Positions 600 through 24,574 of a DNA stretch of 32,070 nucleotides are shown here, in pieces; the stretch's first letter is position 1; each line of letters opens with the position of its first letter. Location of the stretch: the IMG/VR virus record IMGVR_UViG_3300034045_000104; one strand, 5' to 3'. This DNA comes from a virus (taxonomy: Duplodnaviria; Heunggongvirae; Uroviricota; Caudoviricetes). The notes below the pieces were generated by a model, which saw nothing but the letters and a program-made list of their open reading frames with translations, did not search any database and was not told where the DNA came from. The position numbers and the translations under genes are program-made.

Positions 600-774
600 A
601 CCTACAGCAAGTAGGAATTATAGAAACATTAATCAGCATCTGCAAAAACCCTTTTATCCACTCATAGTAGAAATTAAAGAACATTCTGCGTGATATGATT
701 TGAAAACAATCTCGTTTTAACAGCAGCCAACCAATATCGGCAACTAAATAATAGATCCACTTTTAGTAGAAATT
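600..774 (-). CRISPR. Orphan Cas12a-type mini-array / crRNA-like cassette (3 handles)
   Basis: Minus-strand handles AATTTCTAC-TAAAA-GTGGAT (774-755), AATTTCTAC-TATGA-GTGGAT (675-656), AATTCCTAC-TTGCT-GTAGGT (619-600). All fit the Cas12a AAUU-UCUAC-loop-GUAGA-U handle with wobble or compensatory pairs. Spacing is irregular. Confidence 0.75.
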
Positions 775-830
775 AATATGTTAATTCAAGTTTAATAAAA
801 AGGTGCAAAATATTACCACCTAAGAAACCC

Positions 831-859
831 ATTTTAACTACAAAACACATTGTTTACAA
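831..859 (-). promoter_or_regulatory. Putative sigma70 promoter for the distal crRNA cassette
   Basis: TTGTAA-17 nt-TAAAAT on minus strand immediately after the MTase stop, pointing into the handles. Confidence 0.5.
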
Positions 860-3224: not shown

Positions 3225-3533
3225 TTATTTAATTTTACGTGCAAAACCATCCAAGCGATTTCTGATTACCAATACATGCCTTTTAATAGTCTTATGAACA
3301 TCATGTAAATATTTAGCACTCTCTGGCTCATCTCCACATATAGCGTCACAACAATAGGCAACACCTGTTTTGATAAAGATCGGATTATCCAATGTACATT
3401 CATCCACTGGCCACAATTTCATCTCATCAGTCAAAACATATAACTTGTCACACCTCATGCCTTCAACCATGGTGCGTTCACCTTTGCGAGTTAAAGCATA
3501 TAATTTATTCATCATGTTCTCCAAAACAACCAA
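3225..3533 (-). CDS. Hypothetical protein (102 aa)
   Basis: Co-oriented ORF in the minus-strand block. Confidence 0.6.
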   Translation of the reverse strand: MVVLENMMNKLYALTRKGERTMVEGMRCDKLYVLTDEMKLWPVDECTLDNPIFIKTGVAYCCDAICGDEPESAKYLHDVHKTIKRHVLVIRNRLDGFARKIK

Positions 3534-3598
3534 ATATTAAAATACCAATTTAAACCAATATAACAAAGCGATAAATCACAAGCTTCAGCAATCCATTA

Positions 3599-4318
3599 TT
3601 ATACAAATGCTTCACAAGATTCACTGCAACCATTTATAGCATCCATGTCATATCCAAGTAGGTCATATTGCAATTCTGGCATATGATCCTTAAACTCTGT
3701 AAACTCACATTTAGACATTTCAATCAACTTATCAACTGTTAAATATTCTCTGAACCAATATCTTCTTTGCCCATCCTTTACACCAACCAGACTGTATTGC
3801 TCCTTGAACCAATAACGAATTTCGGCCTTAGTAGTTGGAACCATTGAGATAAGCGGGTATATTAACTTTTCCTTTTTTGAGTTTGGATTGATTCTATCAA
3901 TTTCGTCCACTCGAATTCCAACACAAGCCAATGCATCTGGGTCAATCGAACGTCTATATTTGTTCAAGGGAATGGATTTTAAACGCCCTGAACATCTTGG
4001 AATACCTGGTCCTGACAATCCTTCCTTTTTAATATGTTGCTCAAAAGGCTCCCCATCTCTAGAAGCACTTGCATAGTTTACAATTTTATAAGTTTGACCT
4101 ATACCCTTTTGCTGATGCGTAACAGACTCAATCCAAACAAGATTTAAACCCCAATGCTTGTCACACTTATTCACAAATTCAAGCGTTTTCTCATGCTCTA
4201 AACCGGTGTTAGCAAATACAAAATACAAATCATATTAGCCGCTTTTATTATCCAGCAACCATTTACACATAAATGCACTGGTCCTACCTCCTGAAAATGA
4301 CACTACGAGCTTTTGCAT
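3599..4318 (-). pseudogene. PAPS-reductase-like (PP-loop) protein with premature stop
   Basis: ATG at 4318 gives MQKLVVSFSGGRTSAFMCKWLLDNKSG*YDLYFVFANTG. In-frame TAA at 4235-4237 separates the SFSGG PP-loop from the rest (GIRVDE motif). Confidence 0.8.
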
Positions 4319-4325
4319 AAAACAC

Positions 4326-4664
4326 CTATTCAACAATCACTAAATTAAGTTCATCGATACCAATAATATGTTTTATTTCCGCTGTAGGGAAAAGGCACTT
4401 AGCCCTATCCAGAGAAGAAAATACACTACCTACCTGCATATGTGCATCACGCCATTGATTATCAGACAACATTGGTTGAAAATAGATCTGTCTATCCTCT
4501 ATACCCAACCCAGCTTCATCACAACTATTGCAATACTCCAAACCAGCGTTACAATCTCCTTCATCATTAAGCACCCAACGCTGGGTTTCAACATACCAAG
4601 ATACAGGACTCATATCGGTAACATCACTTGAGCCGCACTTTTTACAAACTTTCACTATTGCCAT
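4326..4664 (-). CDS. Hypothetical protein with zinc-ribbon (CKKC...CNSC)
   Basis: Two CxxC pairs; GAGG Shine-Dalgarno upstream. Confidence 0.65.
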   Translation of the reverse strand: MAIVKVCKKCGSSDVTDMSPVSWYVETQRWVLNDEGDCNAGLEYCNSCDEAGLGIEDRQIYFQPMLSDNQWRDAHMQVGSVFSSLDRAKCLFPTAEIKHIIGIDELNLVIVE

Positions 4665-4714
4665 TTATATAACCTCTAAGATAAGTTAATTTATGATATA
4701 TAATAAATAAACTA

Positions 4715-4743
4715 CAAAGCCAGCTGAATTCAACTGGCTTTTA
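4715..4743. terminator. Intrinsic terminator-like hairpin
   Basis: AAAGCCAG-ctgaattcaa-CTGGCTTTTT just downstream of parB. Confidence 0.55.
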
Positions 4744-4760
4744 TCTAACATAGATATAGA

Positions 4761-6455
4761 CTAACTTTTATTTATATCTAGCTTTACCTCGCCATACTGA
4801 CTAATCGGAAACTGGATATATGGGGGAATGAAATCAGCTTTTAAGTTACTGACAAGGATTTCCTTGCGCTTTGGAAGTGTAGCTTTGGCAAACCCACCCA
4901 TTTCATCATCTGTCAACAACTCTTGAGCTACTGCCCATGTTGCATCCTTTGATGATAGACCTTGAATCACTTCTTCATCAGCTTTCCAGTAATCAGCAGG
5001 ATTAATTCCCATATCAACGCCAAGTCGCTCAATTAAATCCGTATTCTTATGAAGCGTAGCTAACATAATTGTTGAACACATCTCGGTCAATTCATCCATC
5101 GTCTTATCTTTAAGCTCATCAAAAACCTTAACAAGAGAATTGCCAAACACGCGCCACGTACTACCAAGACCAAATCCCTCCTTAAAATCACCAATTCTTT
5201 TATATAAATCCATGGTAATATCGTGGTTGGCAAGCTGAGCGTTTCCCTCTTCATTGATATCACCAACCTCCATAAATGAAAACACAGACTTAGTAATTAA
5301 ATGAGCCACCATAACCCGCATAGACATGAGCTTATCACCTGATAATTTAGCTCTGACCATTTGATAATGCCAATCAGAATAATACACTTGAGAACCCGAT
5401 GACAATTCTTGTCTTTGCTTTGTAGCAGGCATTTCAACATCTTGCTCGCTACTGGCTGTCTCAACATCAGGCTTTTCAGAAGCATCTCGCATATCATAGC
5501 CTTCATTAATATCCACTTGACCATCAGCAGCAACTGTAATAACAACACTGCCGCCTTCGGCCTTATCTAATGAATCACAACTCCATTTGTTAAATGATAA
5601 AGTGCTGTCCTTGTCGATAACCACAACCTTCCACCCGTCTTTTTCAAAAGCTTTTTTCTTAGCCATTACAGCTTTCAATTGTAACTTCCAAAACAAATCA
5701 ACATCAGTAATATAGCCTTCATCGGTAAACAAATCCTTACTCATGAGCATTTTATGTTTCTTCACATCAAAAAGGGCATAACCAGGGTCAATTTCCACAT
5801 TACAAAAAAAGGTCTTTGCATACCATTCATGTTTTGATAAGCCATCGTTTAATGCCTGAACATAGGCATCTTGCTTGTCATGCTCATAACGAACCATTAA
5901 CTTTAGAATATCATCATCAGTAAACACATCATTACGATATGCCTCTTTTGCAAGTTCAGACAACCCACCTAAAGCGATATTTTCCTTAACCTGTTTAACA
6001 GTTAACCCAAAACGCTTGGCAATGCTCGTAAATGTAGCACCCTTTGCCTTAAGATGGGTAAATGCTGTACATCTATCCAAGGCATCCATCTGCTGAGTAT
6101 AAATGTTTTCAGATAAAGACTTTGCAACATCATCTTTAATATCGGACTGAAGAACCACGCAAGGAACTTCGGGGTAAATCCCATCTTGTTCTTGTAATAT
6201 CTCACAAGCCTTTAAACGTCTTTGGCCTGCTATAACATGATAATTGCCATCATCTGCAAGTCGCACACTTAAAGGATTAATTAAACCTACCTCGCCAATA
6301 TTAATAGCAAGCTCTTTAATGCCATCAAGACCATGCTTTCTAACATTGTCATCACTTACTGTTAACTTATCAATAGCTACCAACTGCGTAGCCAATACAT
6401 TTACTGATTCAGATTCATCAGTTAAAACACTTACTTTACCCATAAAACACTCCAA
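4761..6455 (-). CDS. parB: ParB/RepB/Spo0J-family protein (long MGE type)
   Basis: N-terminal ParB domain (GLINPLSV...IAGQRRLKAC, SENI) followed by HTH. Probable start MGKVS at 6443 with GGAG SD. Confidence 0.85.
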   Translation of the reverse strand: MECFMGKVSVLTDESESVNVLATQLVAIDKLTVSDDNVRKHGLDGIKELAINIGEVGLINPLSVRLADDGNYHVIAGQRRLKACEILQEQDGIYPEVPCVVLQSDIKDDVAKSLSENIYTQQMDALDRCTAFTHLKAKGATFTSIAKRFGLTVKQVKENIALGGLSELAKEAYRNDVFTDDDILKLMVRYEHDKQDAYVQALNDGLSKHEWYAKTFFCNVEIDPGYALFDVKKHKMLMSKDLFTDEGYITDVDLFWKLQLKAVMAKKKAFEKDGWKVVVIDKDSTLSFNKWSCDSLDKAEGGSVVITVAADGQVDINEGYDMRDASEKPDVETASSEQDVEMPATKQRQELSSGSQVYYSDWHYQMVRAKLSGDKLMSMRVMVAHLITKSVFSFMEVGDINEEGNAQLANHDITMDLYKRIGDFKEGFGLGSTWRVFGNSLVKVFDELKDKTMDELTEMCSTIMLATLHKNTDLIERLGVDMGINPADYWKADEEVIQGLSSKDATWAVAQELLTDDEMGGFAKATLPKRKEILVSNLKADFIPPYIQFPISQYGEVKLDINKS

Positions 6456-6498
6456 TAATTAAAATAAAAACAACAACACATCATAGAAACACTCAATA

Positions 6499-6674
6499 TT
6501 AAAACTATACCATCTTGCATCAGAGATTATGATACCCGCCGTGCTTTTTCAGTAGGCGAAGCCGAAAGAAAAAGCACGGCGAAAGAATCTCATTCCAACT
6601 GAGTTACTCATTAAGAGTGGGCGAAACGCCAACACCCAAAGCAACCCATAAGCCAAGAAGATATAAAGTTTTAA
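6499..6674 (-). ncRNA. Retron msr-msd-like ncRNA, copy 1 (downstream of RT)
   Basis: a1/a2 inverted repeats 6674-6654 / 6517-6499; candidate branching G at 6653; msr-like stem GGGUG..GGCG-UUU-CGCC.CACUC; msd-like hairpin GCCGTGCTTTTTC..GGC-GAA-GCC..GAAAAAGCACGGC (6538-6580). Confidence 0.7.
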
Positions 6675-6713
6675 ATCTAAGAATTAATAATAGAGCGACT
6701 AAAATATCTGCAA

Positions 6714-8021
6714 TTAAACATGGGCATATCTAACTTCAATATTTGTACCCTTACGCTTGCCTGTGCCACACTTAAGATTATCAAAATAGGGCTTATATCT
6801 TTTGACAACATTACCAACAACCCGTTGACCCGAATATTTTTGTTTAGCCTGTGCCACCGATATCACCCCATGCTTTTCTAACTCAGCTTTCAGGGCATCT
6901 GTATCATTTCCGTATAGTCGGTCATAGATGAGAACTCCATTTCGTAGTTCGTGAACTAACGCCCTGTTAATCATGGCTCTCCTAGTTACTTTTCCAAATG
7001 ATATTGTTGAATTTGACATTTGATAAGCACATCGAGTACCTGCCAAAGCAATCCAAAAGCCAACCCCTCGCTTATAAGAGCCAGTATTACTCATACAGCT
7101 AGTCCAGCCCGTTGTGAAAGTTGAAGCCCCCAGCATATCAATAGGGTCGCCAGATATAACACAATCATTACCTAGTACATCAGTTTGTTTTTTGGGAAAA
7201 TTGGCAATATCTTTCTGCCTTAAGCCCATTTTCCACAATGAGTTCAATGCATATAGATTATCTTCAACATTAATTCTTTGATTGTCCTTTCTAGGCTCCT
7301 TGCATTTTGACCATTCAGTTAGCCCTTGCAATGAATCTTTATTTCCTTGAAACTTAGCGGCTCGAATTTTACGCAAAGCTTTACGAGCAGGGTGAACGCC
7401 ATGTTCATCCACTCCAACACCTGTGATTAAAATCCTACCATTGCTTAATTTTTGTAATTTAGTCTTACTTTTATTAACTACAAAACCACCACGAGTTACC
7501 ACCTGATTTATTATTGCAATAATATCAGAGGTATAACTTTCATCATCAAAACTAATAGTTAAATCATCGGCATAGCGCGTATAGATACACTGCATTTTCT
7601 TTTTTTCAAAAGCTCTCAAAATTGCTAAATCACTTTTACGAAAAGCCAAATTAGAGATGGCTGGAGATGTAGGCAAACCTTGCCTTGCACTACCATCAAT
7701 AAAGCACAAATCAAGCTCTTGTTTGTTGAGATGACCCTTTACCGTCTTTGGGGTAATGCTATCAAAGAAGTCTTGTAAATCCATTGACAATGTGAATTGA
7801 TGCCCAACATGTTTTGTTGCATTGGTAACACAATTACGTGTTCGCATAAATGCATGACAAATCTCTGAATCTGCATCTAGTTTCATCATTTTACTAGCAA
7901 TATTAGCTACCGCATTTTTCAAAGCAACCTTATATTCACCACTAGCATCATATATTTTTCTAAACTTGCCATTGCCTTTCGCGAGCTGAAACACCCGATA
8001 TTGCTTTTCTACTACTGCCAT
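6714..8021 (-). CDS. Retron-type reverse transcriptase with about 190-aa unknown C-terminal extension
   Basis: RT motifs MDLQDFFDSI, QGLPTSP, YADD; retron region X NATKH and region Y ITG. Confidence 0.9.
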   Translation of the reverse strand: MAVVEKQYRVFQLAKGNGKFRKIYDASGEYKVALKNAVANIASKMMKLDADSEICHAFMRTRNCVTNATKHVGHQFTLSMDLQDFFDSITPKTVKGHLNKQELDLCFIDGSARQGLPTSPAISNLAFRKSDLAILRAFEKKKMQCIYTRYADDLTISFDDESYTSDIIAIINQVVTRGGFVVNKSKTKLQKLSNGRILITGVGVDEHGVHPARKALRKIRAAKFQGNKDSLQGLTEWSKCKEPRKDNQRINVEDNLYALNSLWKMGLRQKDIANFPKKQTDVLGNDCVISGDPIDMLGASTFTTGWTSCMSNTGSYKRGVGFWIALAGTRCAYQMSNSTISFGKVTRRAMINRALVHELRNGVLIYDRLYGNDTDALKAELEKHGVISVAQAKQKYSGQRVVGNVVKRYKPYFDNLKCGTGKRKGTNIEVRYAHV

Positions 8022-8072
8022 ATTAATTACCTATAAATATTTTAGTTAATACATAATACAATGGCTAAATAT

Positions 8073-8468
8073 TCACTCAGCAACACACATTAAATCAACA
8101 GCAAGTATTACATTAAATTTACATTCAAACCAGTGCCACACATCATACAGCTCACTACCTTTTGGAAAATGAAGAAAATCATCATCAATATATTCAGCAT
8201 CCACATCTACTGGAACATCACCCAAATCACTCCACAATTTAACTGCACGAATATAGCTTTCACAACGACTGATTAGACTTACATCAATAGCATCCTTCCC
8301 CATACCTTCAACATAAACAAACTTGAGCCAATTATTAACAATCCCGTCACCCAAAGGCCCCAACCCATTATTGCCTTCAACCCACACAACATGCTTAAGG
8401 TCATCGTTACTGTTTTTATTAGCATCCAACCAAGCTGCAACCACACTTAGAATATATGTTTTATCCAT
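8073..8468 (-). CDS. Hypothetical protein between retron ncRNA and RT (candidate accessory)
   Basis: ORF-track start 8519 overlaps the a2 repeat; MDKTYIL at 8468 has a GAGGT SD. C-terminal DDFLHFPKG..DVWHWFE motif. Confidence 0.7.
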   Translation of the reverse strand: MDKTYILSVVAAWLDANKNSNDDLKHVVWVEGNNGLGPLGDGIVNNWLKFVYVEGMGKDAIDVSLISRCESYIRAVKLWSDLGDVPVDVDAEYIDDDFLHFPKGSELYDVWHWFECKFNVILAVDLMCVAE

Positions 8469-8501
8469 CACAAATACCTCAAAATAGAATTTAAAATAAT
8501 A

Positions 8502-8672
8502 CAAAGCAACTCCTTGCAAGAAGAGACGAAGAGATCCTCAAGGTAAAAATTCGGAGGCGTAGCCGTAGAACCTTTTACCGTCTCGGATCTTGTCTCTGAC
8601 AATCTAGACTGTCAATAAAGAGTGGACGATACATCACACCCAAGCCAGCCTATAAGCCAAGAAGTTACTTTG
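8502..8672 (-). ncRNA. Retron msr-msd-like ncRNA, copy 2 (upstream of RT)
   Basis: 15-bp a1/a2 (CAAAGUAACUUCUUG / CAAGGAGUUGCUUUG, two G-U pairs); candidate branching G at 8657; long msd-like hairpin 8523-8596 tipped by GGC-GTA-GCC; shares AAGAGTGG..CACCCAA..ATAAGCCAAGAAG with copy 1. Confidence 0.78.
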
Positions 8673-8715
8673 ATTAAGAACAATTAATTATAAGAATGCT
8701 AAATTACGACAAGAG

Positions 8716-9255
8716 CTAGTCAAAACCAAATTCATAATGACCACCAACAGACGTGCTTTGCCAACACAACATCCAAAACATCGTATTTTGTTGTAATGCA
8801 GCTAAGATATGTTCATTCTCAGAAAATCCACCTGTTGATAATCTCCACACACTTTGATTATCAGCAAAATCCTTAAGCGGAACACTATCCCCACACCTTT
8901 TAATAAATGGCAATATCAATTCAAACAACTTACCCCAACCCAAAGTAATTGGCCAGACACGTATTGCCTCTAATGCCCAAGAAGGCACCTCAGAATCTTT
9001 TAACCCATCTGATAACAGTCTTTGCGTATACACGCAACTTACCAATTTGTCATATTCATCTTTTGTGATTTTCCAGAATCGCCCCCACCAATCAAAAGCT
9101 AATAACAACACATCACCAGAGGAGCTGTTTTCATGAACATATGCACAACCATCCAATGTCGGAATAGCAAGAATGGTTTTAATTAAATTATCAATACTTG
9201 ATTCCTCACCATAGGCCTCAACCCACCCACTACCAAATATATAATACTCTCTCAT
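8716..9255 (-). CDS. Hypothetical phage/MGE-type protein (179 aa)
   Basis: LSTGGFSENEHIL..FWMLCW..GGHYEF motif that I associate with phage hypotheticals; unverified. Confidence 0.7.
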   Translation of the reverse strand: MREYYIFGSGWVEAYGEESSIDNLIKTILAIPTLDGCAYVHENSSSGDVLLLAFDWWGRFWKITKDEYDKLVSCVYTQRLLSDGLKDSEVPSWALEAIRVWPITLGWGKLFELILPFIKRCGDSVPLKDFADNQSVWRLSTGGFSENEHILAALQQNTMFWMLCWQSTSVGGHYEFGFD

Positions 9256-9293
9256 ACATCACCAATTTATAAAAAACCATTATAGACAGGCAC

Positions 9294-9322
9294 AAAAAAG
9301 CCGCTTTAAAAAGCGGCTTTTT
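9294..9322. terminator. Bidirectional intrinsic terminator ending the crRNA cassettes
   Basis: AAAAAAGCCGC-tttaaaaa-GCGGCTTTTT. Confidence 0.8.
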
Positions 9323-9336
9323 GAATAGGAATATTA

Positions 9337-9467
9337 ACCAACACAAGTTGGGAGTAACAATTAACCCTAAGGTAATCGTCAGGAATTAACAAAGTCTATT
9401 AGACAACTGTGTTAGAACCTCTCCAAAACTTACCTACACAAGTAGAGATTTACGTAGTCTATTAAAC
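9337..9467 (-). CRISPR. Cas12a mini-array cassette 3
   Basis: Near-consensus repeat 9467-9432, 27-nt spacer 9431-9405 (AAGTTTTGGAGAGGTTCTAACACAGTT), half repeat ending 9404, variant handle ACTCCCAAC-TTGT-GTTGGT at 9355-9337. Confidence 0.75.
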
Positions 9468-9570
9468 AGCTAACTAAGAACAAAATACCCTATATGGTGC
9501 TTTTGAGTATCACAAGATTCAAAAAAACACTATATTCATGCTATTATACTCATTAGACCAGGGTTTGCAA
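9468..9570 (-). promoter_or_regulatory. Promoter + leader, copy C
   Basis: TTGCAA(9570-9565)-16 nt-TATAAT(9548-9543); 44-nt core 9487-9530 identical to copies A and B. Confidence 0.8.
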
Positions 9571-9594
9571 TTTTCTATAAAACAAATTAACTCA

Positions 9595-9785
9595 ATCTGC
9601 ATCAGCAAATTTACATAGCCCATTAGTCCAATAATATTTGTATTTCTCATAAGTTTACATAACCTATTAGACAGAAGTTATATTTATACTTATAGATGTA
9701 TCCGCAAAAGCGGAAGTTTTATAGTGTCATTGAGACTTATGAGTTAGGTATCCGCAAAAGCGGAAGTTTACAAAGTCTATTAAAC
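9595..9785 (-). CRISPR. Cas12a mini-array cassette 2 with variant TCCGC/GCGGA handles
   Basis: Repeats 9785-9750 and 9736-9700 with handle AACTTCCGC-TTTT-GCGGAT; 13-nt spacer 9749-9737; 27-nt spacer 9699-9673; degenerate repeats 9672-9654 and 9628-9595. Confidence 0.8.
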
Positions 9786-9867
9786 AGCTAACTAAGAACA
9801 AACTACCCTATATGGTGCTTTTGAGTATCACAAGATTCAAAAAAACACCTATATTCAAGCAATTATA
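9786..9867 (-). promoter_or_regulatory. Leader copy B with -10 box
   Basis: TATAAT at 9867-9862 with no consensus -35; 44-nt core 9805-9848. Confidence 0.7.
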
Positions 9868-9868
9868 G

Positions 9869-10031
9869 TCATTCACAAATTGGAATTAACGTAGCCTATT
9901 AGACCCGCTCAGACATAAGTTTCCTCAGCCAAATCTACACAAGTAGAAATTCTCCTAGTCTATTAAACGCAAGAGCTAGCCAACCCTGACCATGAATCTA
10001 CACAAGTAGAAATTCTCCTAGTCTATTAAAC
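9869..10031 (-). CRISPR. Cas12a mini-array cassette 1 (consensus repeats)
   Basis: Two identical 36-nt repeats GTTTAATAGACTAGGAGAATTTCTACTTGTGTAGAT (10031-9996, 9968-9933), 27- and 28-nt spacers, degenerate terminal repeat about 9904-9869. Confidence 0.93.
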
Positions 10032-10136
10032 AGCTAAATAAGGACAAACAACCCTATATGGTGCTTTTGAGTATCACAAGATTCAAAAAAACACCTATAT
10101 TCATGCTATTATAGTGATTAAGACCAGGGATTGCAA
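10032..10136 (-). promoter_or_regulatory. Promoter + leader, copy A
   Basis: TTGCAA(10136-10131, inside cas12a)-17 nt-TATAAT(10113-10108); 44-nt core 10051-10094. Confidence 0.85.
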
Positions 10137-13100
10137 TTATCTAACATATTTAAGAAATGCCCAAAATACTTTTCGTTTTCTAAAAACAAATCAACCTTGT
10201 CATCAACTGCAGTCTCATTGATTTGCTGTAAAGCCCATAACCCCTTCACCCCAATTAAATAAGCGCCCAACATATCAGTAGAGCAGGGCATATTACCTGC
10301 ATCCAAGGAATTGTAATAACTGCCATCAGAGCAACGAATGGGGGATAAAACATAATCCAAACCACCTCGCCCGTTAGATTGCCTCATTTTAAAAACCAGA
10401 TTCAATAAAAAGAATAAATCTCTAAAAAACGCAGCTGAATTAACCTCTAAGATCACTGGCAATATATCTTCACCATCCTTAAATTCAATATCAGCATTAA
10501 TCAACAACGACTGCAATTCTTCATTAACATTAATACATTCAAATTCTTTTTGGGTCTTGTCATAAAAATAACGCTCATCTCCATGAGTGGATGCCACCCA
10601 TTTTGTTTTATAACCAGTAAAATCCCGTTTAGAAAACATTGGCTCATAATCAAAACCAATATCAAAAACATTGAATTCTTTATTAAAACGAACACCTTCA
10701 AACTTACCTAAGAAAGACTTCGCATTTTTCATGTTTTTATATTGAAACCTGATCAAATTAACAAAACCTGATTTCGGACAAAGCGATGTTGTATAGCTTG
10801 GATTAGCAATAAACATGGCCCCCGCCTGTTTTCCTAGCATTTTAAGCGATTCAAATTTAGGTGCCAATTGATAAGCATTTAAAACATGACCCGCCTGGCC
10901 AATAGTCTTTTCTTTTAGTACCATAAAATTAAGCTTATTTGATAATGCAATCAAGAATCGGTCATATATTTGCGCCTCAAACTTCTGCCTAGCTTGCTTG
11001 AAACCAGCATCCAATCCATCCACACATAGTACCGCATTATGCTCAATCATTAATCTTGTAACCCTATGCAAGACGGTACCAAGAAAACCTTGTTTTAATT
11101 CTTTAATCCCATCAACAGCAGCCCATGCCTTTCTTGATGCGTTTCTTTTCAACTCTCTATCTTTCAAGATAACTTGATAATCAGTAACTATTTTGTTGGG
11201 GTCAACGACCTTATCAAGTGTATCATGATCGATAATTTTTCCTGATTGGTCCATTACAACATAGTAAAGAAGATTCTTTTCACCACGTTTTAAAGCCAGT
11301 ACATTTATTTTCTTTTTATTGGCTCGAATCACTTCATTATTGAAGTTGCGGTTAAAGTAAAAAGATTCTTTTGCGCCTTGATGGTTTAATGTGATGCTAA
11401 AATTAAATTGAAAATGTTCCTTAGTGTATTTCTTATCTTTAATAATATCATAAGCATAAGTTGCTGTTTTATTTTTTGCATTGGGATTTTTATTCTTAAT
11501 TGGAATCCCTGCTTTATGCACAATCATTTGTTCCTTGCTAATTAGTGCGGGTCGCCAAAAAAGCTCACCACCTCCATTTAATTTGATAATTGGCGCTTTC
11601 AAGTTCACTTGAGAGAACAAGTTTTTAATGTACATCGTGTGTATACTATCACGCCCTTTTGAATGGGGAGAAAAATCCATATTGTAGATTTGGAATAAGA
11701 ATAACTTACCACTTTCAACAGCCGCATCGATGTAATCATTTTTGATACAAGTAAAATCAACTTTATAAGCGGCCTTTTCAACTTCTACATAAAACTCACT
11801 GACATTGGTATAAGTCGATGTCTTACTGAAATTATAATTAAACTGGTTCCAAACAGGATGAATTTTAAGACAGCCCTTAAAGTAATCAATGACCTTATGA
11901 CAGTCATCTAAATTGAATTCAGCCTTATCAAAACCATCCTTTGGCAACCCACCTTTGGTATGTGAAGAGCGATTAGTAATATCGATAATTTCATCACTAG
12001 GATTAAAGAATTCACGTCTATTCAACGCTGAAATAAAAACTTTAGGACCCATTTTATTGAAGCCAGATACCATGGAGTAATCCATTTTATTGTAGCCAAC
12101 ACCATCTGGGCATTTGATTTCATTCAAAAATGCTTTTTTCTTCGCAGCTTTTACAGGGTTAAAATGCTCATCAAATTTAAGCGTGTAATCAAAGAGCTTT
12201 TTATTATCTTGATTAACTATCCCCAGGTAATACAAACCATCTTTTTCAAACATAACAGATGAGGATGCCTGTTCTTGACCTGATGACCAACCACTGAGTA
12301 ATTGATAATTATCAAAGTTTAACTTGATCTTCTTACTAGTTGATTTTTTCTTAGTTACATGATTTCTGACTTTGTTATAAAGCAAAAACATTAATTCATC
12401 TAGATGAGAATAAACATCCAGGAACCCAGAATAAAACAAAGAATCATGATTGAGGGCTTTAGTCATATCAATAGCAGCTTTATTTTCAACCAAATGAAGC
12501 GGCCTATAAGCTACAACGAACGCGTTCATGCACTCCAATAAGGACTGAATTATTTGAACTTGCTTAAATCCCTTGCCGCCTTCGTCTTCATCATTTCTTG
12601 TTTTTGGTAGCCTTCTATTGGCATCTAGAAAATCAAGGCATTCAATTGTCTTATATAACTCACGAGCCTTGTCATAAGACTCTTTTAATTTGATATAAGA
12701 ACCAACAATGCCAGATTGCACAGGCAATTGCGTTTTCAATTCTGATAAAATAGAATAAAAACCATCATCAGAATTCAGCGTATTAGCATATTTGATAATG
12801 AGCTCATCCATCTGACCGATACTGACAACCGACACATCATTTAGATTGTTCTCACTTAGCACGACATCAATTAATTTATAGTCACCAAATATAGCGTTAG
12901 ATAAGAATTTAATTTTGTTGGTTTTGATATAAATAGCAGTCGCGTCACGCTTGCTCAGCGATAATATTGTTTGACTCAAAGAATTAAAAATACCATCCTT
13001 TGACTCTAACATCTCAACAGCGGCATTAAGTGCGGCAATCATTTCCTTATCAGTATCGAAAAACGCAGGCACAAACGACAAAGAGCCCCCTTCACCAAAT

Positions 13101-13990
13101 ATTTGACGTTGAAGTTTTACAAAAACGCCAAACCTTGAGATGTCTTTATTGACTGCTAATAATTCATATATAAAGCTATTTATACCCTTGGTACGAGAGC
13201 CATCCTCATGACTAACACCTAGGAATTTTGCATTGTAATTATTTATATTGTTCTGAGCGACATAATCAAAAGCCTTGCTTAATTCAAACAACTCATCACT
13301 CTTATGTAACACATCCAATAAGCCATCAAATCTTTTGTCTTGCTCACCCAACCCAAGAACATTATTAAAGGCCAATTTATTTTTGAAAAACAATTCTAAA
13401 TTCACATCAACGATACGATAGGCCAGGGCATTAGATTTGGACTCAGATGAAAACAAGCTTTTCTTTAGCTTAAAGTAATCCATAAAATAACTGGTAAACT
13501 TATTAAATCCATGGACTATTTGAATGTCTTTATAGTCACAATCTTGCTCATCCATCCACTCAGGCAAAACCTTCACCAAAAATGCTGATTTCAAAAGAGC
13601 GCTTAAGCCAATAAAGCATTTAGCAACATGCTTTCTTAACTTGTCTTTACTAGAATCATAGGCTTTAAAAGCCTTTTGCATGCGCTTGGTCTTTACTTCT
13701 TTTGACTCATCACCTTCATCAGATGTACCAATCACAGACCGATACAACTCATAGTGGGACTCAATCAATGCGGCATCAACCTTAAGGCCTGCAAGACAAC
13801 GCTTGATGTAATCACGATAGTAAGCATCAGCAAATCCTTTTACAGCCAAAAAATCCTTAGCTCTTTGCTTATCTTGTTCAACAAATCCCTTTTCTTTAAT
13901 GTGTTCCAGAGTTTTACCGACCGGAATTAGTTTTTGGCGAATAGTTTTTGTCACTTGGTATACACCGGTGCTTTCATCAAAGACACTCAT
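10118..13990 (-). CDS. cas12a: Type V-A Cas12a (Cpf1) homolog, predicted nuclease-dead
   Basis: 1290 aa; N-terminal KTIRQKLIPVGKT, KLNFDN..LSGW, NKMGPKVF, KLNGGGELF. RuvC-I LALKRGEKNLLY (D>K), RuvC-II LCVDGL (E>D), RuvC-III TDMLGAY. Adjacent Cas12a-type repeats. Confidence 0.95.
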   Translation of the reverse strand: MSVFDESTGVYQVTKTIRQKLIPVGKTLEHIKEKGFVEQDKQRAKDFLAVKGFADAYYRDYIKRCLAGLKVDAALIESHYELYRSVIGTSDEGDESKEVKTKRMQKAFKAYDSSKDKLRKHVAKCFIGLSALLKSAFLVKVLPEWMDEQDCDYKDIQIVHGFNKFTSYFMDYFKLKKSLFSSESKSNALAYRIVDVNLELFFKNKLAFNNVLGLGEQDKRFDGLLDVLHKSDELFELSKAFDYVAQNNINNYNAKFLGVSHEDGSRTKGINSFIYELLAVNKDISRFGVFVKLQRQIFGEGGSLSFVPAFFDTDKEMIAALNAAVEMLESKDGIFNSLSQTILSLSKRDATAIYIKTNKIKFLSNAIFGDYKLIDVVLSENNLNDVSVVSIGQMDELIIKYANTLNSDDGFYSILSELKTQLPVQSGIVGSYIKLKESYDKARELYKTIECLDFLDANRRLPKTRNDEDEGGKGFKQVQIIQSLLECMNAFVVAYRPLHLVENKAAIDMTKALNHDSLFYSGFLDVYSHLDELMFLLYNKVRNHVTKKKSTSKKIKLNFDNYQLLSGWSSGQEQASSSVMFEKDGLYYLGIVNQDNKKLFDYTLKFDEHFNPVKAAKKKAFLNEIKCPDGVGYNKMDYSMVSGFNKMGPKVFISALNRREFFNPSDEIIDITNRSSHTKGGLPKDGFDKAEFNLDDCHKVIDYFKGCLKIHPVWNQFNYNFSKTSTYTNVSEFYVEVEKAAYKVDFTCIKNDYIDAAVESGKLFLFQIYNMDFSPHSKGRDSIHTMYIKNLFSQVNLKAPIIKLNGGGELFWRPALISKEQMIVHKAGIPIKNKNPNAKNKTATYAYDIIKDKKYTKEHFQFNFSITLNHQGAKESFYFNRNFNNEVIRANKKKINVLALKRGEKNLLYYVVMDQSGKIIDHDTLDKVVDPNKIVTDYQVILKDRELKRNASRKAWAAVDGIKELKQGFLGTVLHRVTRLMIEHNAVLCVDGLDAGFKQARQKFEAQIYDRFLIALSNKLNFMVLKEKTIGQAGHVLNAYQLAPKFESLKMLGKQAGAMFIANPSYTTSLCPKSGFVNLIRFQYKNMKNAKSFLGKFEGVRFNKEFNVFDIGFDYEPMFSKRDFTGYKTKWVASTHGDERYFYDKTQKEFECINVNEELQSLLINADIEFKDGEDILPVILEVNSAAFFRDLFFLLNLVFKMRQSNGRGGLDYVLSPIRCSDGSYYNSLDAGNMPCSTDMLGAYLIGVKGLWALQQINETAVDDKVDLFLENEKYFGHFLNMLDNCNPWS

Positions 13991-14135
13991 AAACCAGCCC
14001 CACGCCCTTCACGCACATTCTCAATCAACTCATAAAAATCATCACTTGCATTCATACCCGTACCCTTATTAGTTATTTGAATTATATTATAGAAAGGCAC
14101 ATATTACACGCGCCACCTTACTTACTCATCTACTT

Positions 14136-14864
14136 TTATTGTTCGGCTAGAAATTGACTAAATTTAGCATATTCATCAGCTGTAATATTAACAAACTTAT
14201 TCCACCCTGTATACGCATCTAGCAACTCACTAGCCATGTGCTTATTAGAGGCATCAAAAACCTCACACGTTCCATTAAATAAAATATCACCAGACCTTAA
14301 TGCATTTATCAAGTCATTAATTCCGTAATTGTCATAATGATTAACATAATCAGAGCCAAGCAAAAAATATTGTTTATTATCAATTTCAAGCTGCTCATCT
14401 ACAAAGCCACTGACCGTCTCATACCAATCTTTTTCATCCCAGTTATCATTTCCATACTTCTCTTGAAAGGCCATGGTGATTTCAACACAAATTCCCATCA
14501 AACCAGCCTGACCCTCATGGCGCTTTATTTTTATAAGTTTAGGATTAACATCTGCCAAACCAACAATTTGCTCACAAACCAGCCAATTAACCTCCAAATA
14601 CCCAAGCAATCTTTTTTTGAGCGTCTTACAGCCAACCTTAAGAATATTTTGTATTGACTCAACTACCATTGCACAATTTCTATACGCATTATCAACATAG
14701 AATACTGTATTTGTACTCATACAGATAATCGCAACAGTCAAGCCTTGGCTATTTGCATTATTATCAAAATAGACATCGATATGCATAAAATTATCATCAT
14801 CTATAAAATCATTCTTAACTTCAGTTACATTCTTCTGATTACTATTAGTCATATTTACCACCAC
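14136..14864 (-). CDS. Hypothetical protein (242 aa)
   Basis: Long co-oriented ORF; no motif recognised. Confidence 0.75.
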   Translation of the reverse strand: MVVNMTNSNQKNVTEVKNDFIDDDNFMHIDVYFDNNANSQGLTVAIICMSTNTVFYVDNAYRNCAMVVESIQNILKVGCKTLKKRLLGYLEVNWLVCEQIVGLADVNPKLIKIKRHEGQAGLMGICVEITMAFQEKYGNDNWDEKDWYETVSGFVDEQLEIDNKQYFLLGSDYVNHYDNYGINDLINALRSGDILFNGTCEVFDASNKHMASELLDAYTGWNKFVNITADEYAKFSQFLAEQ

Positions 14865-14921
14865 TGTTATTTATATATACAATCATAGCCCTGCGAGATA
14901 ATCAAAAACCATTCCAACAAA

Positions 14922-15992
14922 TTAAGCCGCTTTCTTAAATATTGGATTTCTTCCCATCTGAAACTCCAAATTACTTTTGGCATATTTATTAACATACACA
15001 AGAATTTGATTCATTTCACTACTTGGAAATAGCAAAGTGTAGTGTGACTTAAACACTTTCAGCTTAATACCATTGATAATACATTCATCTCCTGCATTCA
15101 ATTTCTTTGCCAAAAACCCATCAAGTGCTTCAAGTCCTTTATAGTTATTAAAATACTTAAACATTCTTTTCACCGCACCCCAAAGCTCCTCACAATAACG
15201 ACCATATCGATGCTCAGAACCAAAATAATCACCATCACTACATCCCAAAACCCAAGACTCACTCAACTGTAAGCCATCTTTTATTTTTTTACAGTCTCTA
15301 AAGGTGCCTGCTATCCTAATACCTGCCTTGGCATGATAGGCGCCGTTAATAGCATCAGGGTCAAACACATTTATAAAGTCATCTAAAGCCTCATCTAATT
15401 TAAAAACCTCATCAAAAGCCTTAAAATCCCATTTATCAACATTGACAAAAGACCCACCAATGATATTGCTACACGTATAATGACAATCGATCATATGTTT
15501 AACTCTTGTCTGGAAAGCTTGTTTTAATTCATCATAGGCATTGTTGGCCAGTGATTTCATATCAAAGGACATATCAAAGCTCCCTTTAAGCCACTCAACA
15601 TCCTTATGGGCATAGATGTCTTTATATGCAGCTATCGCCTTCTTTAATTTAAGCCTGACACCATCAACCGTTCTTTGATAGCCATATCCCATGATATTTC
15701 TAAATACATTGGTATCGCCATAACAAGCCAAACCAATACCCACAAAACACATTTTCACACCATTAAAATAAAAATAATCAGATGTCTCACCCTTATTCAA
15801 AGCATAAACAGCATTAGAAAGCCCATCATCAACACACAACATCCCACAATAAGCATTGGCTTTATCGTAATCACCATTAATCCTCTCAGTTTTACTGAAA
15901 TCAACATTGGCCAACAAGTCAGCTCTAAAATCTTCATATTTAATAATTTTCATGTATTCACCAATTTCTAAAATTCCATTATAATTTGACAC
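14922..15992 (-). CDS. Hypothetical protein (356 aa)
   Basis: Long co-oriented ORF ending KKAA; no confident family. Confidence 0.75.
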   Translation of the reverse strand: MSNYNGILEIGEYMKIIKYEDFRADLLANVDFSKTERINGDYDKANAYCGMLCVDDGLSNAVYALNKGETSDYFYFNGVKMCFVGIGLACYGDTNVFRNIMGYGYQRTVDGVRLKLKKAIAAYKDIYAHKDVEWLKGSFDMSFDMKSLANNAYDELKQAFQTRVKHMIDCHYTCSNIIGGSFVNVDKWDFKAFDEVFKLDEALDDFINVFDPDAINGAYHAKAGIRIAGTFRDCKKIKDGLQLSESWVLGCSDGDYFGSEHRYGRYCEELWGAVKRMFKYFNNYKGLEALDGFLAKKLNAGDECIINGIKLKVFKSHYTLLFPSSEMNQILVYVNKYAKSNLEFQMGRNPIFKKAA

Positions 15993-16018
15993 AAAAAAGC
16001 ACCGCTTAAAACGGCGCT
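15993..16018 (-). terminator. Intrinsic terminator
   Basis: Minus strand AGCGCCG-ttttaag-CGGTGCT-TTTTT. Confidence 0.6.
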
Positions 16019-16067
16019 ATTCACTATTGAATATTAAGCTGCAGCTCGCTTGTGTTTTAATTGTTCA

Positions 16068-17431
16068 TTGACATCCTCACCGCCCTAAAGGACGATGATT
16101 CCTAAAAGAATTAGGCAACTAACGATCGCTCGTACAGTTGAGGTTCCTGCTTCATAGAGACTGCCAACGCACTCTCTCCACAGGCTATCGCGACAAGCCC
16201 TGCCGCTAAAATATTTAATGCAGCGTTTAAGTCTGCATTTAGTTCTAATCCACATACCAGGCACTTAAACAACTCTTGGGTTTTTCTGTTGTCTTTGTGT
16301 GTAAATCCACAACCACTACATTTTTGAGAAGTGTATTTTGGGTCTATCTTGATTACATCATTGCCCTGCCATTGGCACTTATACTCAAGCTGGCGAACAA
16401 ACTCGCCCCAAGCTTGCTCAAGGATCACTCGATTCAACCCAGATTTTGCCTTAATGTTTTTACCAGGGCTTTCCATATCGCCTTTAGCTGATTTACTCAT
16501 GTTTATGATTTTCAAATCTTCAACAAAAATGATAGCGTGGTTTTTGCTCAATTGTGTTGAGGTTTTATGAAGAAAATCGTGACGAGTATTTTTAATCAAA
16601 GTATGCAGCTTTGAAACCTTAAGTTTTTGTTTTCTCCAATTATTAGAGAACTTGACCTTACGCGCTAAGTTGCGTTGCAGCTTAGCTAGTTTGGTTTTAT
16701 TAATTTTGCCAGAGTTAACTGGTGCCACTACCAGCCCATCAGAACAAGTCACAAACTGTTTGACTCCCAAATCAATACCAATAGCAGAGGTAGCTTTTGA
16801 TTCAGCATTGACAGCAGTTTCAACCTGAACTGACATGTACCAACCATTGGCACCTTTGGATATGGTTATATTCTTTGGTGTACCAACAATCTCTTGAGAT
16901 TTAAAGAAACCAACCCAACCAATTTTAGGCAAGTACACCCTGCGGTTATCGAACTTAAAGCCCTGAACATACCTGAAAGCATTGGATTGGTGCTTTTTCT
17001 TAAATCGTGGCAATCTTTTGAGTGGTTGTTTCTTATCGAAACAATCCTTAAAAGCCTTTTCCAAATCTTTGAGTTTTTGTTGTAGAACCTGGCTATGACA
17101 TTCTTTCAAGAACCCATATTCTTCTGATTGTTTCCACAAGGTCAACCAGTAGGCGGATTCATTGTACCAGTAGATATTTTGTTTTTGCTCAAGCCTAGAG
17201 ACACACATTGCCAATACTTTATTCCAAGCAAACCGAGCATGACCACTAAAGACATTGAGCTTGCGCTCAATATTAACATCGGTCTTTAACTTGAATTTAT
17301 AGGCTTTGCGTATATTCATAGTTGGGAGTTTACCAAATCCTATTCTCAAAACTTGAGAATGGAATTAAATTAAACATTAAAAAAAGGCTTATATCCCCGC
17401 CATGAATGACGGGGTTTTACGCCTAAAAGTG
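16068..17431 (-). mobile_element. IS200/IS605-family non-autonomous element (tnpB only)
   Basis: Left end TTAT|CAC...CCCCGTCA-TTCA-TGGCGGGG hairpin (17414-17395); right end TCATCGTCC-TTTA-GGGCGGTGA hairpin finishing GGATGTCAA at 16068; no tnpA. Confidence 0.85.
16111..17349 (-). CDS. tnpB: TnpB RNA-guided endonuclease
   Basis: KAYKFKL N-terminus; Ruv[17 protein letters not shown] all intact; CSGC/CLVC zinc finger. Confidence 0.95.
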
Positions 17432-17464
17432 ATAATTAACAAGATATTATAGTTTCACTGCAAT

Positions 17465-17678
17465 TCAAGCAGCGACTTTAAATGTACGCGGTTGATTCAC
17501 CTCAACCACTTTAAACTCAGCACCATATTTCTTATTTACCCCACCACAAAAGACACATGCCTTAGATTCATCCATAAAACCCTTAATTTTGAAATAGGGC
17601 TCATATGAATATTTATAACCACGCTTGATGCCCCTAATGAAATAACCGTCCTTTACTGATCGCAGGGCATAATACATA
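17465..17678 (-). pseudogene. 3' fragment of IS3-interrupted gene
   Basis: Removing the IS and one TAT copy joins ...ITVD to MYYALR... in frame. Confidence 0.8.
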
Positions 17679-17708
17679 TGTAATGGTCAAGTTTTATCGG
17701 AGACATTT

Positions 17709-18548
17709 TTAGCCACATTTCCTTAATTCATTAAATTTCTGATTTGGAGTTAAATAATCAATAGCAGAATGTAATCTTTTGTAATTATAGAAATAAATAT
17801 AACTTTCAACTTCTGTAATAACTGCTTCATGATTAATAAACCTCAAATGGTTTAATCGTTCTGTTTTTAAATTTCTAAAAAATCTTTCCATAACAGCATT
17901 ATCCCAACAATTACCTCTGCGACTCATACTCCGAGTTATTTTTAAACCTTCACAATACACGGCAAACATGTTTGCCGTGTATTGTGTGCCTTGGTCAGAG
18001 TGAAACAATAGATTACTTGTGTCTGGTTGCTTTCTATTAATAGCATTGCTTAATGCCGCTTTTGCTAATGTGGCATCGGGTGTTTTTGACAAAGCCCAAC
18101 CAACTATTTCTTTTGTGCCTAAATCAAGTACACTTGCTAGATAACTCCAGCCTTGGTGGTTACGAATATAAGTTATGTCACCAACCCAATGTGTATTGAT
18201 TCTTGATTGTTTAAACTGTCTATCTAGAACATTCTCAATCTTCATATCACATATACCGCTATTGGGGTAATAATGCTTTTTCTTTGGCTTAATCGCCACT
18301 ATTTTAGCCATTTTCATCATGCTGGCTGTTTTATGAAGGCCAATATTGATCCCTTCAAGTTTTAATTGTTGTTGCATACGCCTTTTACCATATGAATGCT
18401 TAGTTTCAATGGCTGTTTGCTTGAGAATTGAGATTATCTTATTCTTTTCCCCTGCAAGTGGCTTTTCCTTTGATTGGTCGTAATAGGTGCTTTGATTTAA
18501 ATCAAAAACATCGCATAATTCCGTGATTGTATATTTAGGATTTGCCAT
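17709..18548 (-). CDS. IS3 transposase OrfB (DDE/rve)
   Basis: WVGDITY, HSDQGTQY, DNAVMERFF motifs; the -1 frame is open from the A6G site to this ATG. Confidence 0.93.
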   Translation of the reverse strand: MANPKYTITELCDVFDLNQSTYYDQSKEKPLAGEKNKIISILKQTAIETKHSYGKRRMQQQLKLEGINIGLHKTASMMKMAKIVAIKPKKKHYYPNSGICDMKIENVLDRQFKQSRINTHWVGDITYIRNHQGWSYLASVLDLGTKEIVGWALSKTPDATLAKAALSNAINRKQPDTSNLLFHSDQGTQYTANMFAVYCEGLKITRSMSRRGNCWDNAVMERFFRNLKTERLNHLRFINHEAVITEVESYIYFYNYKRLHSAIDYLTPNQKFNELRKCG

Positions 18549-18574
18549 CTTAAGTTCTTTGATTTTAATTGCTT

Positions 18575-18880
18575 TTAATCTTCTCGAATAAAGATGGCTG
18601 CAGCCTTTTTTAAGATTTCATTATCTCTTTTAGCTCTCCATAATTGATTTTTTAAACCCTGTATTTCTTGTTGTTCTGCAGTTAATGCTTTCTTACCTTC
18701 AGGGGTATTACCAACAAGTTCATCAAGATATTGTTTCTTCCAACGTGAAACTGCGGTAGAACCAGCTCCTGAAATATCAACAATTTGTTGATTTGTATAA
18801 CTTTCATTAACCATTAATTTGGCATAATCTAATCTTTGTTCAACTGTAAATGACAACCTTTGTTTTCTTTGCTTTGACAT
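18575..18880 (-). CDS. IS3 transposase OrfA (HTH)
   Basis: HTH plus leucine-zipper-like end ...ENEILKKAAA-type (RDNEILKKAAAIF). Confidence 0.9.
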   Translation of the reverse strand: MSKQRKQRLSFTVEQRLDYAKLMVNESYTNQQIVDISGAGSTAVSRWKKQYLDELVGNTPEGKKALTAEQQEIQGLKNQLWRAKRDNEILKKAAAIFIRED

Positions 18881-18943
18881 TTTCTTACCTCGTTTTGTCT
18901 ATTATAAGGCTAAAAATGTCTCCGAGTTTATTAAACCATTACA

Positions 18944-19485: not shown

Positions 19486-19533
19486 ATCACCAATATTCTA
19501 TTATTCACAATAATGAATTATAAAAATGCTCAA

Positions 19534-24353: not shown

Positions 24354-24574
24354 ATCATCACCATTTTTATTAAAACATTATAAAAAAACTATAAACTCAC
24401 AATTTACGAATTAAACACCAGCTTCATAAAAATGAATTATTGAATTTAACCACCCCATCGCTTAGAATCAAGGCAGGCAACGAGCCACGGTATTAAAATA
24501 ATAGATCGCATAGGTCATATTCATCAAAAAAAGAATAACAAATTGAGCTATGCGTAATAATAAAAAGCACAATT

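Follow-up and report, generated by a model that had tools for sequence, protein, structure and literature searches.

Our analysis of the IMG/VR virus record IMGVR_UViG_3300034045_000104 (Duplodnaviria; Heunggongvirae; Uroviricota; Caudoviricetes), a stretch of 32,070 nucleotides (nt) that we call the window, identified a cassette of three orphan handles of the Cas12a type, that is, of the CRISPR RNAs (crRNAs) that this effector uses. The handles lie at 774-755, 675-656 and 619-600, all on the minus strand, in a 447-nt gap that runs on that strand from the stop codon of a DNA methylase gene (863-861) to the start of a 148-amino-acid (aa) gene (413 downwards) and has no open reading frame (ORF) longer than 35 aa. 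The cas12a gene of the same element is on the same strand, and the cassette lies 9.3 kb downstream of its stop codon. An earlier note on this DNA had placed three such handles on the cas12a strand, in an unannotated gap about 9 kb from the effector, and both statements were borne out. The best reading of 555-859 is a small non-coding unit of three crRNA-like RNAs (crlRNAs), a handle-only mini-array and not a CRISPR array. We give an even chance to the more specific proposal that, as a separate transcription unit, the cassette provides the element's own, apparently dead Cas12a with three additional guides.

Three handles that share little beyond the handle itself

The pattern AATTYCTAC-N3-6-GTRGRT matches the window five times, at the three orphans and at two canonical repeats (10014-9996 and 9951-9933), and gave no match in 100 dinucleotide-preserving shuffles of the window; the three handles are far beyond chance. 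Handle 1 (AATTTCTACTAAAAGTGGAT; 774-755, minus strand) reads AAUUUCUAC-UAAAA-GUGGAU, and its third stem pair is a G-U wobble. Handle 2 (AATTTCTACTATGAGTGGAT; 675-656, minus) reads AAUUUCUAC-UAUGA-GUGGAU, and handle 3 (AATTCCTACTTGCTGTAGGT; 619-600, minus) has the loop TTGCT and a change from U-A to C-G at the stem's base. All three have the AAUU, the 5-bp stem with its pairing kept, a loop of 4-5 nt and the closing U of a Cas12a handle, and under the covariance model described below they score 23.3, 23.8 and 27.5 bits, respectively. The orphan loops are all of 5 nt (TAAAA, TATGA and TTGCT), against TTGT or TTTT in the main arrays beside cas12a. Alignment confirmed the earlier description of loops of 5 versus 4 nt, of the U-G wobble (pair 3 of units 1 and 2) and of the compensatory C-G pair (unit 3).

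Handles 1 and 2 form a 22-nt direct repeat of 91% identity, and the likeness among the orphan units ends at the handle, with 20-22 nt shared; just 5' of the handle, units 2 and 3 also have in common the weak sequence AATGTT(T)CT(T/A)T. Compared with the three mini-arrays at cas12a, the 5' part of the repeat, the spacing and the loops all differ. With only 20-22 nt repeated, the cassette would be missed by array finders, as the earlier note had anticipated. Tandem Repeats Finder made no report at the cassette, and an Rfam search of it gave no match. A possible fourth, degenerate handle at 727-700, in the tail of unit 1, was no better than shuffles and was rejected.

Structural constraint on the handles

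The alignment on which we rely takes in every distinct handle variant of the window, seven in all: the three orphans, and four that come from the arrays at cas12a. Every stem cell pairs (35/35), including those with the C-G swap and the G-U wobbles of the orphans, and two-sided changes have occurred in three of the five stem pairs; as a control, sliding the 3' arm by 1-3 columns reduced pairing to 29-55%. A1 and T10 are unchanging in all seven variants, and A2, T4 and the terminal T, which are lost in some main-array variants, are kept by all three orphans. The orphans have thus retained the single-stranded and tertiary-contact bases (the 5' AA, the U before the stem, the first loop U and the terminal U). 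We take these columns to be A(-19), U(-10), A(-18), U(-16) and U(-1) in the numbering of the AsCas12a crRNA, and presumably they are the bases of the U-U and reverse-Hoogsteen contacts in the AsCas12a pseudoknot. The Cas12a crRNA fold consists of five Watson-Crick pairs, one U-U pair and one reverse-Hoogsteen A-U pair (review PMC6507119).

A covariance model built from the same seven variants (R1) assigns 23-29 bits to nine units of the window and no more than 16 bits to everything else in it, and over 86 kb of related elements nothing exceeded 13 bits. High scores are expected for the units from which the model was made; because it was trained on them, its informative part is that nothing else comes close. 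That the likeness ends at the mature handle, and that the changes preserve pairing, fits selection for Cas12a binding and not the random erosion of a 36-nt repeat. The alignments support the view that these are genuine Cas12a-type handles under structural constraint, and they look selected.

An apparently dead Cas12a on the same replicon

The cas12a gene (10118-13990, minus) encodes a protein of 1290 aa that has all five Cas12a Pfam domains and aligns end to end with solved structures. In RuvC-I, IGIDRGE has become LALKRGE (LALKRGEK), a change from Asp to Lys; the Glu of RuvC-II is Asp, and the Asp of RuvC-III is kept. Alignments to PDB entries indicate that the His/Lys/Lys of the pre-crRNA RNase in the WED domain are kept as well, the His being H825, in the segment HKA...IKNKNP...IIKDKKY, so that a cognate Cas12a with an intact pre-crRNA RNase site is found on the same replicon as the cassette. 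The residue states of both RuvC and WED are identical in the sole relative found (P0002, 74% identity). The earlier note had called the effector dead, and the loss of the RuvC-I Asp, common to both proteins, points the same way; it is a reasonable view, judging from these residues, that the protein is nuclease-dead yet crRNA-processing. The 32-kb window has no cas1, cas2 or cas4.

Three promoter-led mini-arrays beside cas12a (9337-10014, minus) served as the reference set for the orphan handles. Their handles are diversified too, with the stems UCUAC/GUAGA, UCCGC/GCGGA, UCUAC/GUAGG and CCAAC/GUUGG, and one unit is closed by a terminator. In the last unit of the third mini-array (9290-9355, minus), the CCAAC/GUUGG stem is followed by about 16 nt and then by a strong stem-loop with a U run (AAAAAGCCGCTTTTTAAAGCGGCTTTTTT), a layout of handle, short pseudo-spacer and terminator as in the CreR or Cracr units discussed below.

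In a screen of 35,682 repeat variants with AsCas12a, the T-A pair at the stem's base could be replaced by C-G and the loop was flexible, but apart from pairs 1 and 4 no substitution in the stem was accepted (bioRxiv 10.1101/747170); with LbCas12a, any of the four bases could stand at each loop position (PMC12508434). Unit 3 looks fully competent for Cas12a, since its C-G swap is one that AsCas12a tolerates and since loops are flexible in both of these proteins. The UCCGC/GCGGA and CCAAC/GUUGG stems at cas12a point either to a more permissive protein or to several units that are purposely graded.

A degenerate handle-like sequence, AATTTCTAG-(13 nt)-GTAGAT, occurs at 14128-14155 (minus), where it overlaps the stop codon of the ORF at 14136-14864. 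The cas12a -10 box follows about 45 nt downstream, which places the sequence where CreR or solitary repeats are found in type V-A loci. The sequence is weak (R1 11.5 bits, E ~2), with one stem pair broken, and is not present upstream of cas12a on L001, the contig that carries P0002.

The putative transcription unit and its folding

A consensus scan places a -35-like TTGTAA at 859-854 (minus), 2 nt after the methylase stop codon, and a -10-like TAAAAT at 836-831 (minus), with 17-nt spacing. Between this putative promoter and handle 1 is a leader hairpin, AGGUG..CACCU followed by UUUUAUU (821-794, minus; -5.9 kcal/mol, z -1.6), which in these fold predictions resembles an attenuator, or a terminator that would end the methylase operon. 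The leader of the cassette has no homology to the conserved leaders from which the three arrays at cas12a start.

Folded as a whole, the 287-nt RNA forms all three handle stems in its minimum-energy structure (z -2.5). Handle 2 is predicted to be at the tip of a long imperfect hairpin (625-705, minus) with 21 further pairs, and shorter flank-to-guide pairings are predicted around handles 1 and 3. The unit ends in a 3' hairpin, AUAGCCAC-UGUAUUU-GUGGCUAU (577-555, minus; -12.2 kcal/mol, z -4.5), and none of 200 shuffles folds as well. The closing hairpin reported in the earlier note is therefore present and stable, but it is not a canonical terminator because it has no U tract, and a terminator scan did not call it as one.

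Guide-like sequences and the search for targets

The bases directly 3' of each handle are those that the earlier note had given as guide starts. Guide-like sequence 1 (754-676, minus) consists of a first 24 nt (754-731), CTATTATTTAGTTGCCGATATTGG, and a 55-nt tail that reaches to handle 2. Guide-like sequence 2 (655-620, minus) starts AAAAGGGTTTTTGCAGATGC and ends in ~11 nt (AATGTTTCTAT) that are similar to the sequence flanking handle 2 on its 5' side (AATGTTCTTT). Guide-like sequence 3 (599-578, minus) is the 22-nt CGTTGTATTCGTTCATGTATTG.

Self-targets in the window were at chance for 24-mers (up to 8 mismatches), for seeds of at least 8 nt, for 30-mers and for 10/12 matches flanked by a protospacer-adjacent motif (PAM). 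The best 30-mer self-match, 20/30 at 24504, was rejected as it is reached in 76% of shuffles; as a target, this site lies within a block shared with L001 in which the seed has not been conserved. The block itself is in a divergent intergenic region (24354-24574, against 2585-2801 of L001) between genes for an SNF2 helicase and a 232-aa protein, has the conserved sequence ATTTTAATAC(C/T)GTGGCTC(G/T)TTGCCT, and is likely to be a shared operator or promoter element. Guide 2 matches at 10 of its first 12 nt at 834-811, next to GTTA, which is the -10/start region of the putative promoter of the cassette. PAM-flanked 10/12 matches number two in the window against 1.6 expected, and in this one seed position 4 is mismatched; its location is suggestive of feedback, at a count no higher than chance.

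The cas12a promoters of the window (220 nt upstream) and of L001 have no run of 7 nt or more and no 10/12 match to the guides. Likewise, a Cas12a-bearing genome from the order of a Hydrogenovibrio metagenome-assembled genome (MAG), taken as a stand-in host, has no PAM-flanked seed match at its promoter. Searches of the cassette by blastn against PLSDB and INPHARED, with E up to 10, gave chance matches only (E ~2-8). In IMG/VR, the 18-mer of guide 1 had no match, that of guide 2 matched 5 contigs in 3 contexts, and the first 18 nt of guide 3 matched 24 contigs in about 7 contexts. The matches of guide 3 were rejected as targets: they fall in ORFs, mostly where otherwise unrelated proteins have the peptide MNEYN encoded by common codons, and there is no consistent T-richness on their 5' side. 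We read the matches of guide 3 as codon-driven chance, and all of these results as background.

One match concerns the arrays beside cas12a. The second guide of the middle mini-array, together with the last 3 nt of its handle (9673-9702, minus), matches a Cellulophaga phage gene at 26/28 nt with E 0.2 (phi4:1_13, L163; KT962245.1, 63923-63950; a gene for a structural or tail protein). The match is preceded on its 5' side by TGAT, which is not T-rich, and the sequence is AT-rich; the match is probably due to chance.

Relatives and genomic setting

The system is a rare one: no Cas12a relatives were found in genome, viral or JGI metagenome collections. The 9-kb contig of the one 74% relative, P0002 (sample SRR29593758), breaks off at the stop codon of cas12a, which leaves the arrays and any cassette out of view. 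In JGI metagenomes, the main repeat gave nothing beyond two chance matches. Handles of the orphan type (GUGGAU arm, 5-nt loop) occur elsewhere in 25 viral and at least 120 genome matches, all single and mostly in coding DNA; among the matches listed (at least 145, from the viral and species-genome collections) none is the repeat of an array, and they occur at chance rate.

The nearest backbone relative is L027, a Pseudomonadota MAG contig (JASFZH010000165.1). Its methylase is 81-82% identical to that of the window, with the same DUF1064-DUF5983-methylase order, and the order shared with window 3225-22620 includes genes for an SNF2-like protein of 1028 aa, a ligase-like protein, and 102-aa and 85-aa proteins as well as DUF1064, DUF5983 and the methylase. 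The 21 kb of L027 that were read have no counterparts of cas12a and its arrays, of the reverse transcriptase gene, or of the genes for the ParB-N protein, the IS3-type protein and TnpB, all of which, by this comparison, look like accessory insertions. After the methylase, L027 has a 78-aa gene and no handle, and the methylase relatives L027-L031 have no handles. The earlier note had named homologous elements without handles at this position as evidence against its proposal. L027 is without handles but also without cas12a, and this fits a link between the two, as far as a single comparison goes.

The element is plasmid-like in its context, with a ParB-N protein, the methylase, DUF1064, a reverse transcriptase, insertion sequence (IS) elements and SNF2 helicases, and it has the cas12a locus at a distance of 9 kb from the cassette. 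Directly upstream of the cassette gap is the methylase gene (861-2069, minus), and the neighbours of the cassette are this orphan DNA methylase, DUF5983 and DUF1064. We take this neighbourhood, which also has a gene linked to polyvalent proteins, to be anti-defence-like. The gene in question is that for the 148-aa protein (3-413 of the window, minus), which has distant relatives of 38-45% identity (L160, L162). In their operons, these relatives have an InPase-domain protein on one side and a very large LPD1 polyvalent protein on the other, and a 77-aa gene also lies in this interval. By this comparison, the cassette seems to adjoin the polyvalent-protein operon of a conjugative element. All relatives of the 148-aa gene are of at most 45% identity and are inside operons without an upstream gap.

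A guide source for the resident Cas12a, and its rivals

If the cassette does serve the element's own Cas12a, a primary transcript would begin at TTGTAA-17-TAAAAT, weak as this promoter is, or would be produced when transcription of the methylase operon reads through, and it would fold three Cas12a pseudoknot handles. The Cas12a of the element would then cut just 5' of each AAUU, retaining the handle and a guide of ~20-24 nt, while host nucleases would trim the 3' ends and the 3' hairpin would protect the last unit. Loaded complexes would bind DNA without cutting it, because the RuvC-I Asp is Lys, and the cassette would thereby add three addresses to a binding or repression system of the plasmid-like element that resembles CRISPR interference. 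Transcription, processing, loading, binding without cutting and the existence of targets are all things that we infer from the sequence. It is tempting to extend this proposal to a natural multiplexed CRISPR-interference network in which a dead Cas12a is served by four promoters and at least 11 guide units, the remote cassette included. The handles would then be non-identical on purpose, to avoid recombination and to rank the guides by loading efficiency; the network would silence genes of the host or of rival elements, for example those of host defence, during plasmid establishment, and the remote cassette would be the arm expressed together with anti-restriction-type neighbours. We regard this extension as speculative and rather doubtful.

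The earlier note had proposed a dispersed guide source for the same dead Cas12a, and the handles, the strand and the processing residues agree with it. Several observations weigh against it. No target of the three orphan guides was found, with or without a T-rich PAM, in the window, the cas12a promoters, PLSDB, INPHARED or IMG/VR, so that the target search beside a T-rich PAM that had been suggested came back empty in every sequence searched. The promoter given in the earlier note is present, but TTGTAA-17-TAAAAT fits the consensus at only 9/12 positions and such sites are near chance density (4 found, 2.1 expected), which makes it a weak one; the weak, terminator-like hairpin at 821-794, with its U run, begins a few bases past the predicted transcription start. 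An imperfect helix of 21 bp (-17.9 kcal/mol, z -2.3) is predicted between guide 2 and the tail of unit 1, which flanks it on the 5' side, and would sequester the guide. Self-structure in the guide is expected to lower the activity of engineered Cas12a crRNAs. The wobble at pair 3 of units 1 and 2 may also weaken loading, to judge from the stem variants that AsCas12a accepts. Finally, the 5-nt loop is found in all three orphans and in none of the units that adjoin cas12a, the handle periods are irregular (99 and 56 nt), and no close relative carrying the cassette was found.

Alternatively, the cassette may encode anti-CRISPR crRNA-like RNAs directed against a host Cas12a, which would turn type V-A immunity off either as a Racr decoy or as a Cracr that redirects the host Cas12a to its own promoter or to that of a CRISPR-guarding toxin. 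The published layout of such units matches what we see, with a handle of only ~20 nt, a spacer-like stretch and a last unit that ends in a hairpin; they are known on phages and plasmids and are sometimes stacked (bioRxiv 10.1101/2024.10.29.618823; PMC10651486). The neighbours of the cassette, an orphan methylase, DUF1064, DUF5983 and a gene with relatives in InPase/LPD1 operons, and the 5-nt orphan loops, which are unlike those of any handle beside the element's own cas12a, are also in line with this explanation. By architecture, the Racr and Cracr classes appear to fit the cassette equally well as a guide source for the resident Cas12a does. However, the three handles differ from one another, and described Cracrs copy the host repeat exactly. 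The orphan-type handle is not the repeat of any array among the matches listed (25 viral, at least 120 genome), and no PAM-flanked seed match was found at the promoter in the stand-in genome or at those of the two dead cas12a genes. Moreover, decoys with this handle would also titrate the Cas12a of the element itself. On balance we think a role in anti-CRISPR unlikely. The guide source for the resident Cas12a and an RNA against a host Cas12a are not mutually exclusive, because RNAs with such handles could be bound by any compatible Cas12a in the cell.

We hold it to be just as improbable that the cassette has no function and is what remains of a type V-A array, older or of foreign origin, which came to lie behind the methylase gene and is eroding, its handles persisting because they are short and recently acquired. 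The spacing of 99 and 56 nt, compared with the ~63-nt period of a 36-repeat control array (in genome G023), would suit a decaying array, as would the weak promoter with the terminator-like hairpin inside the unit, the failure to find a target and the absence of the cassette from L027. The AATGTT(T)CT(T/A)T in the flanks of units 2 and 3 hints at a formerly longer repeat, one that was not the GTTTAATAGACT of the main arrays. Decay, however, should strike the handle like the rest of the repeat, and the 20-nt handle is the sole part kept in all three units. Every change in the stems preserves pairing, with one true double substitution, the single-stranded bases of the handles are intact, and a stable 3' hairpin (z -4.5) closes the unit. 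A last alternative is an autoregulatory, CreR-like unit, in which one of the RNAs would guide the dead Cas12a to the promoter of cas12a, of an array leader or of the cassette. There is precedent, as CreR with an intact 20-nt handle and a partial PAM-proximal match to the cas12a promoter (P_cas12a) is established in type V-A (bioRxiv 10.1101/2023.03.10.532045), and the 10/12 match of guide 2 next to GTTA at 834-811 is in the cassette's own putative promoter. Against this stand the mismatch at seed position 4, the chance-level number of such matches (2 seen, 1.6 expected), the lack of any seed match in the cas12a promoters of the window and L001, and the distance of 9.3 kb from cas12a, where CreR lies directly upstream. 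We consider autoregulation of this kind very unlikely.

Comparison with known systems

With 20-22 nt shared and periods of 99 and 56 nt, the cassette is not a canonical CRISPR array; in the array of G023 that served as a control, 36 identical handles recur every ~63 nt. Its likeness to the canonical V-A crRNAs of FnCas12a, AsCas12a and LbCas12a is in the order AAUU-stem-loop-stem-U, in the 5-bp stem, in the conserved single-stranded bases, in the 3' position of the guide and in effector-intrinsic processing, which is predicted here. The LbCas12a repeat also has a 5-nt loop. Unlike a canonical V-A array, the cassette has no identical 36-nt repeat, no regular spacers of 27-32 nt, no leader homology to the main arrays and no cas1, cas2 or cas4, and its effector has lost the RuvC-I Asp.

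In architecture, the cassette appears closest to a Cracr array. Cracrs are borne by mobile genetic elements, consist of a handle, a short pseudo-spacer and a terminator, and turn the host Cas12a on its own promoter; sometimes they form arrays (bioRxiv 10.1101/2024.10.29.618823). The cassette is like them, CracrVA1 (Liu et al.) included, in being carried by a mobile element, in keeping only a ~20-nt handle, in its spacer-like sequence and terminal hairpin, in being stackable, and in the ~40-nt Cas12a-processed RNAs that are predicted here. It is unlike them in that the element encodes its own, apparently dead Cas12a, that no guide was found to match any of the cas promoters searched, and that the handles differ from one another and from the element's own repeats. 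The published multi-unit Cracr arrays are of types I-C, I-E and I-F, not V-A.

A Racr is a single repeat unit, often beside acr genes, that needs no functional guide for its action. Racrs serve as decoys on mobile genetic elements, and three type V-A examples (RacrVA1-3) inhibit MbCas12a (Camara-Wilpert et al. 2023, PMC10651486). The cassette resembles these as a set of repeat mimics outside the CRISPR-cas locus of a mobile element, with a promoter-like site of its own and predicted binding to Cas12a through the handle; it differs in having three units, 3' sequences of guide length and a cognate cas12a in cis.

CreR of type V-A, for example in Moraxella bovoculi, lies directly upstream of cas12a and has a partial match to P_cas12a next to a TTTA PAM (bioRxiv 10.1101/2023.03.10.532045). 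CreR and the solitary units that Shmakov et al. 2023 (PMC10120712) describe are degenerate mini-CRISPRs: one pseudo-repeat has decayed apart from its 20-nt handle, the RNA resembles a crRNA, and the effector binds with it without cutting. The cassette is similar in these respects, of which binding without cutting is predicted here. Its position, 9.3 kb downstream and not upstream of cas12a, is different, and it has no match of ~10 PAM-proximal nt to P_cas12a.

The engineered multiplex arrays for AsCas12a (DeWeirdt et al., bioRxiv 10.1101/747170) provide another parallel, with non-identical handles that keep the stem, the same T-A to C-G swap and free loops. Those arrays are a laboratory design for carrying several guides without repeated DNA, whereas the diversity here is natural and its purpose can only be surmised. 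If our proposal is correct, the cassette offers natural data on tolerated handle changes (loop length, base-of-stem swap, mid-stem wobble) that could be useful for non-repetitive multiplex arrays.

In summary, handle-only crRNA-like RNAs have so far been known as regulators in bacterial CRISPR loci (CreR, CreA) and as weapons of phages and plasmids against host Cas proteins (Racr, Cracr). If the cassette does supply the resident effector, it would represent a third arrangement, in which a mobile element with a probably dead Cas12a and dispersed, promoter-separated guide genes is a self-contained natural CRISPR-interference device. If it instead acts against a host Cas12a, it would be the first multi-unit Cracr-type array of type V-A that we have found described. 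Either way, such elements are missed by array finders, and what is new in comparison with the known systems is a handle cassette paired with a resident, apparently dead Cas12a.

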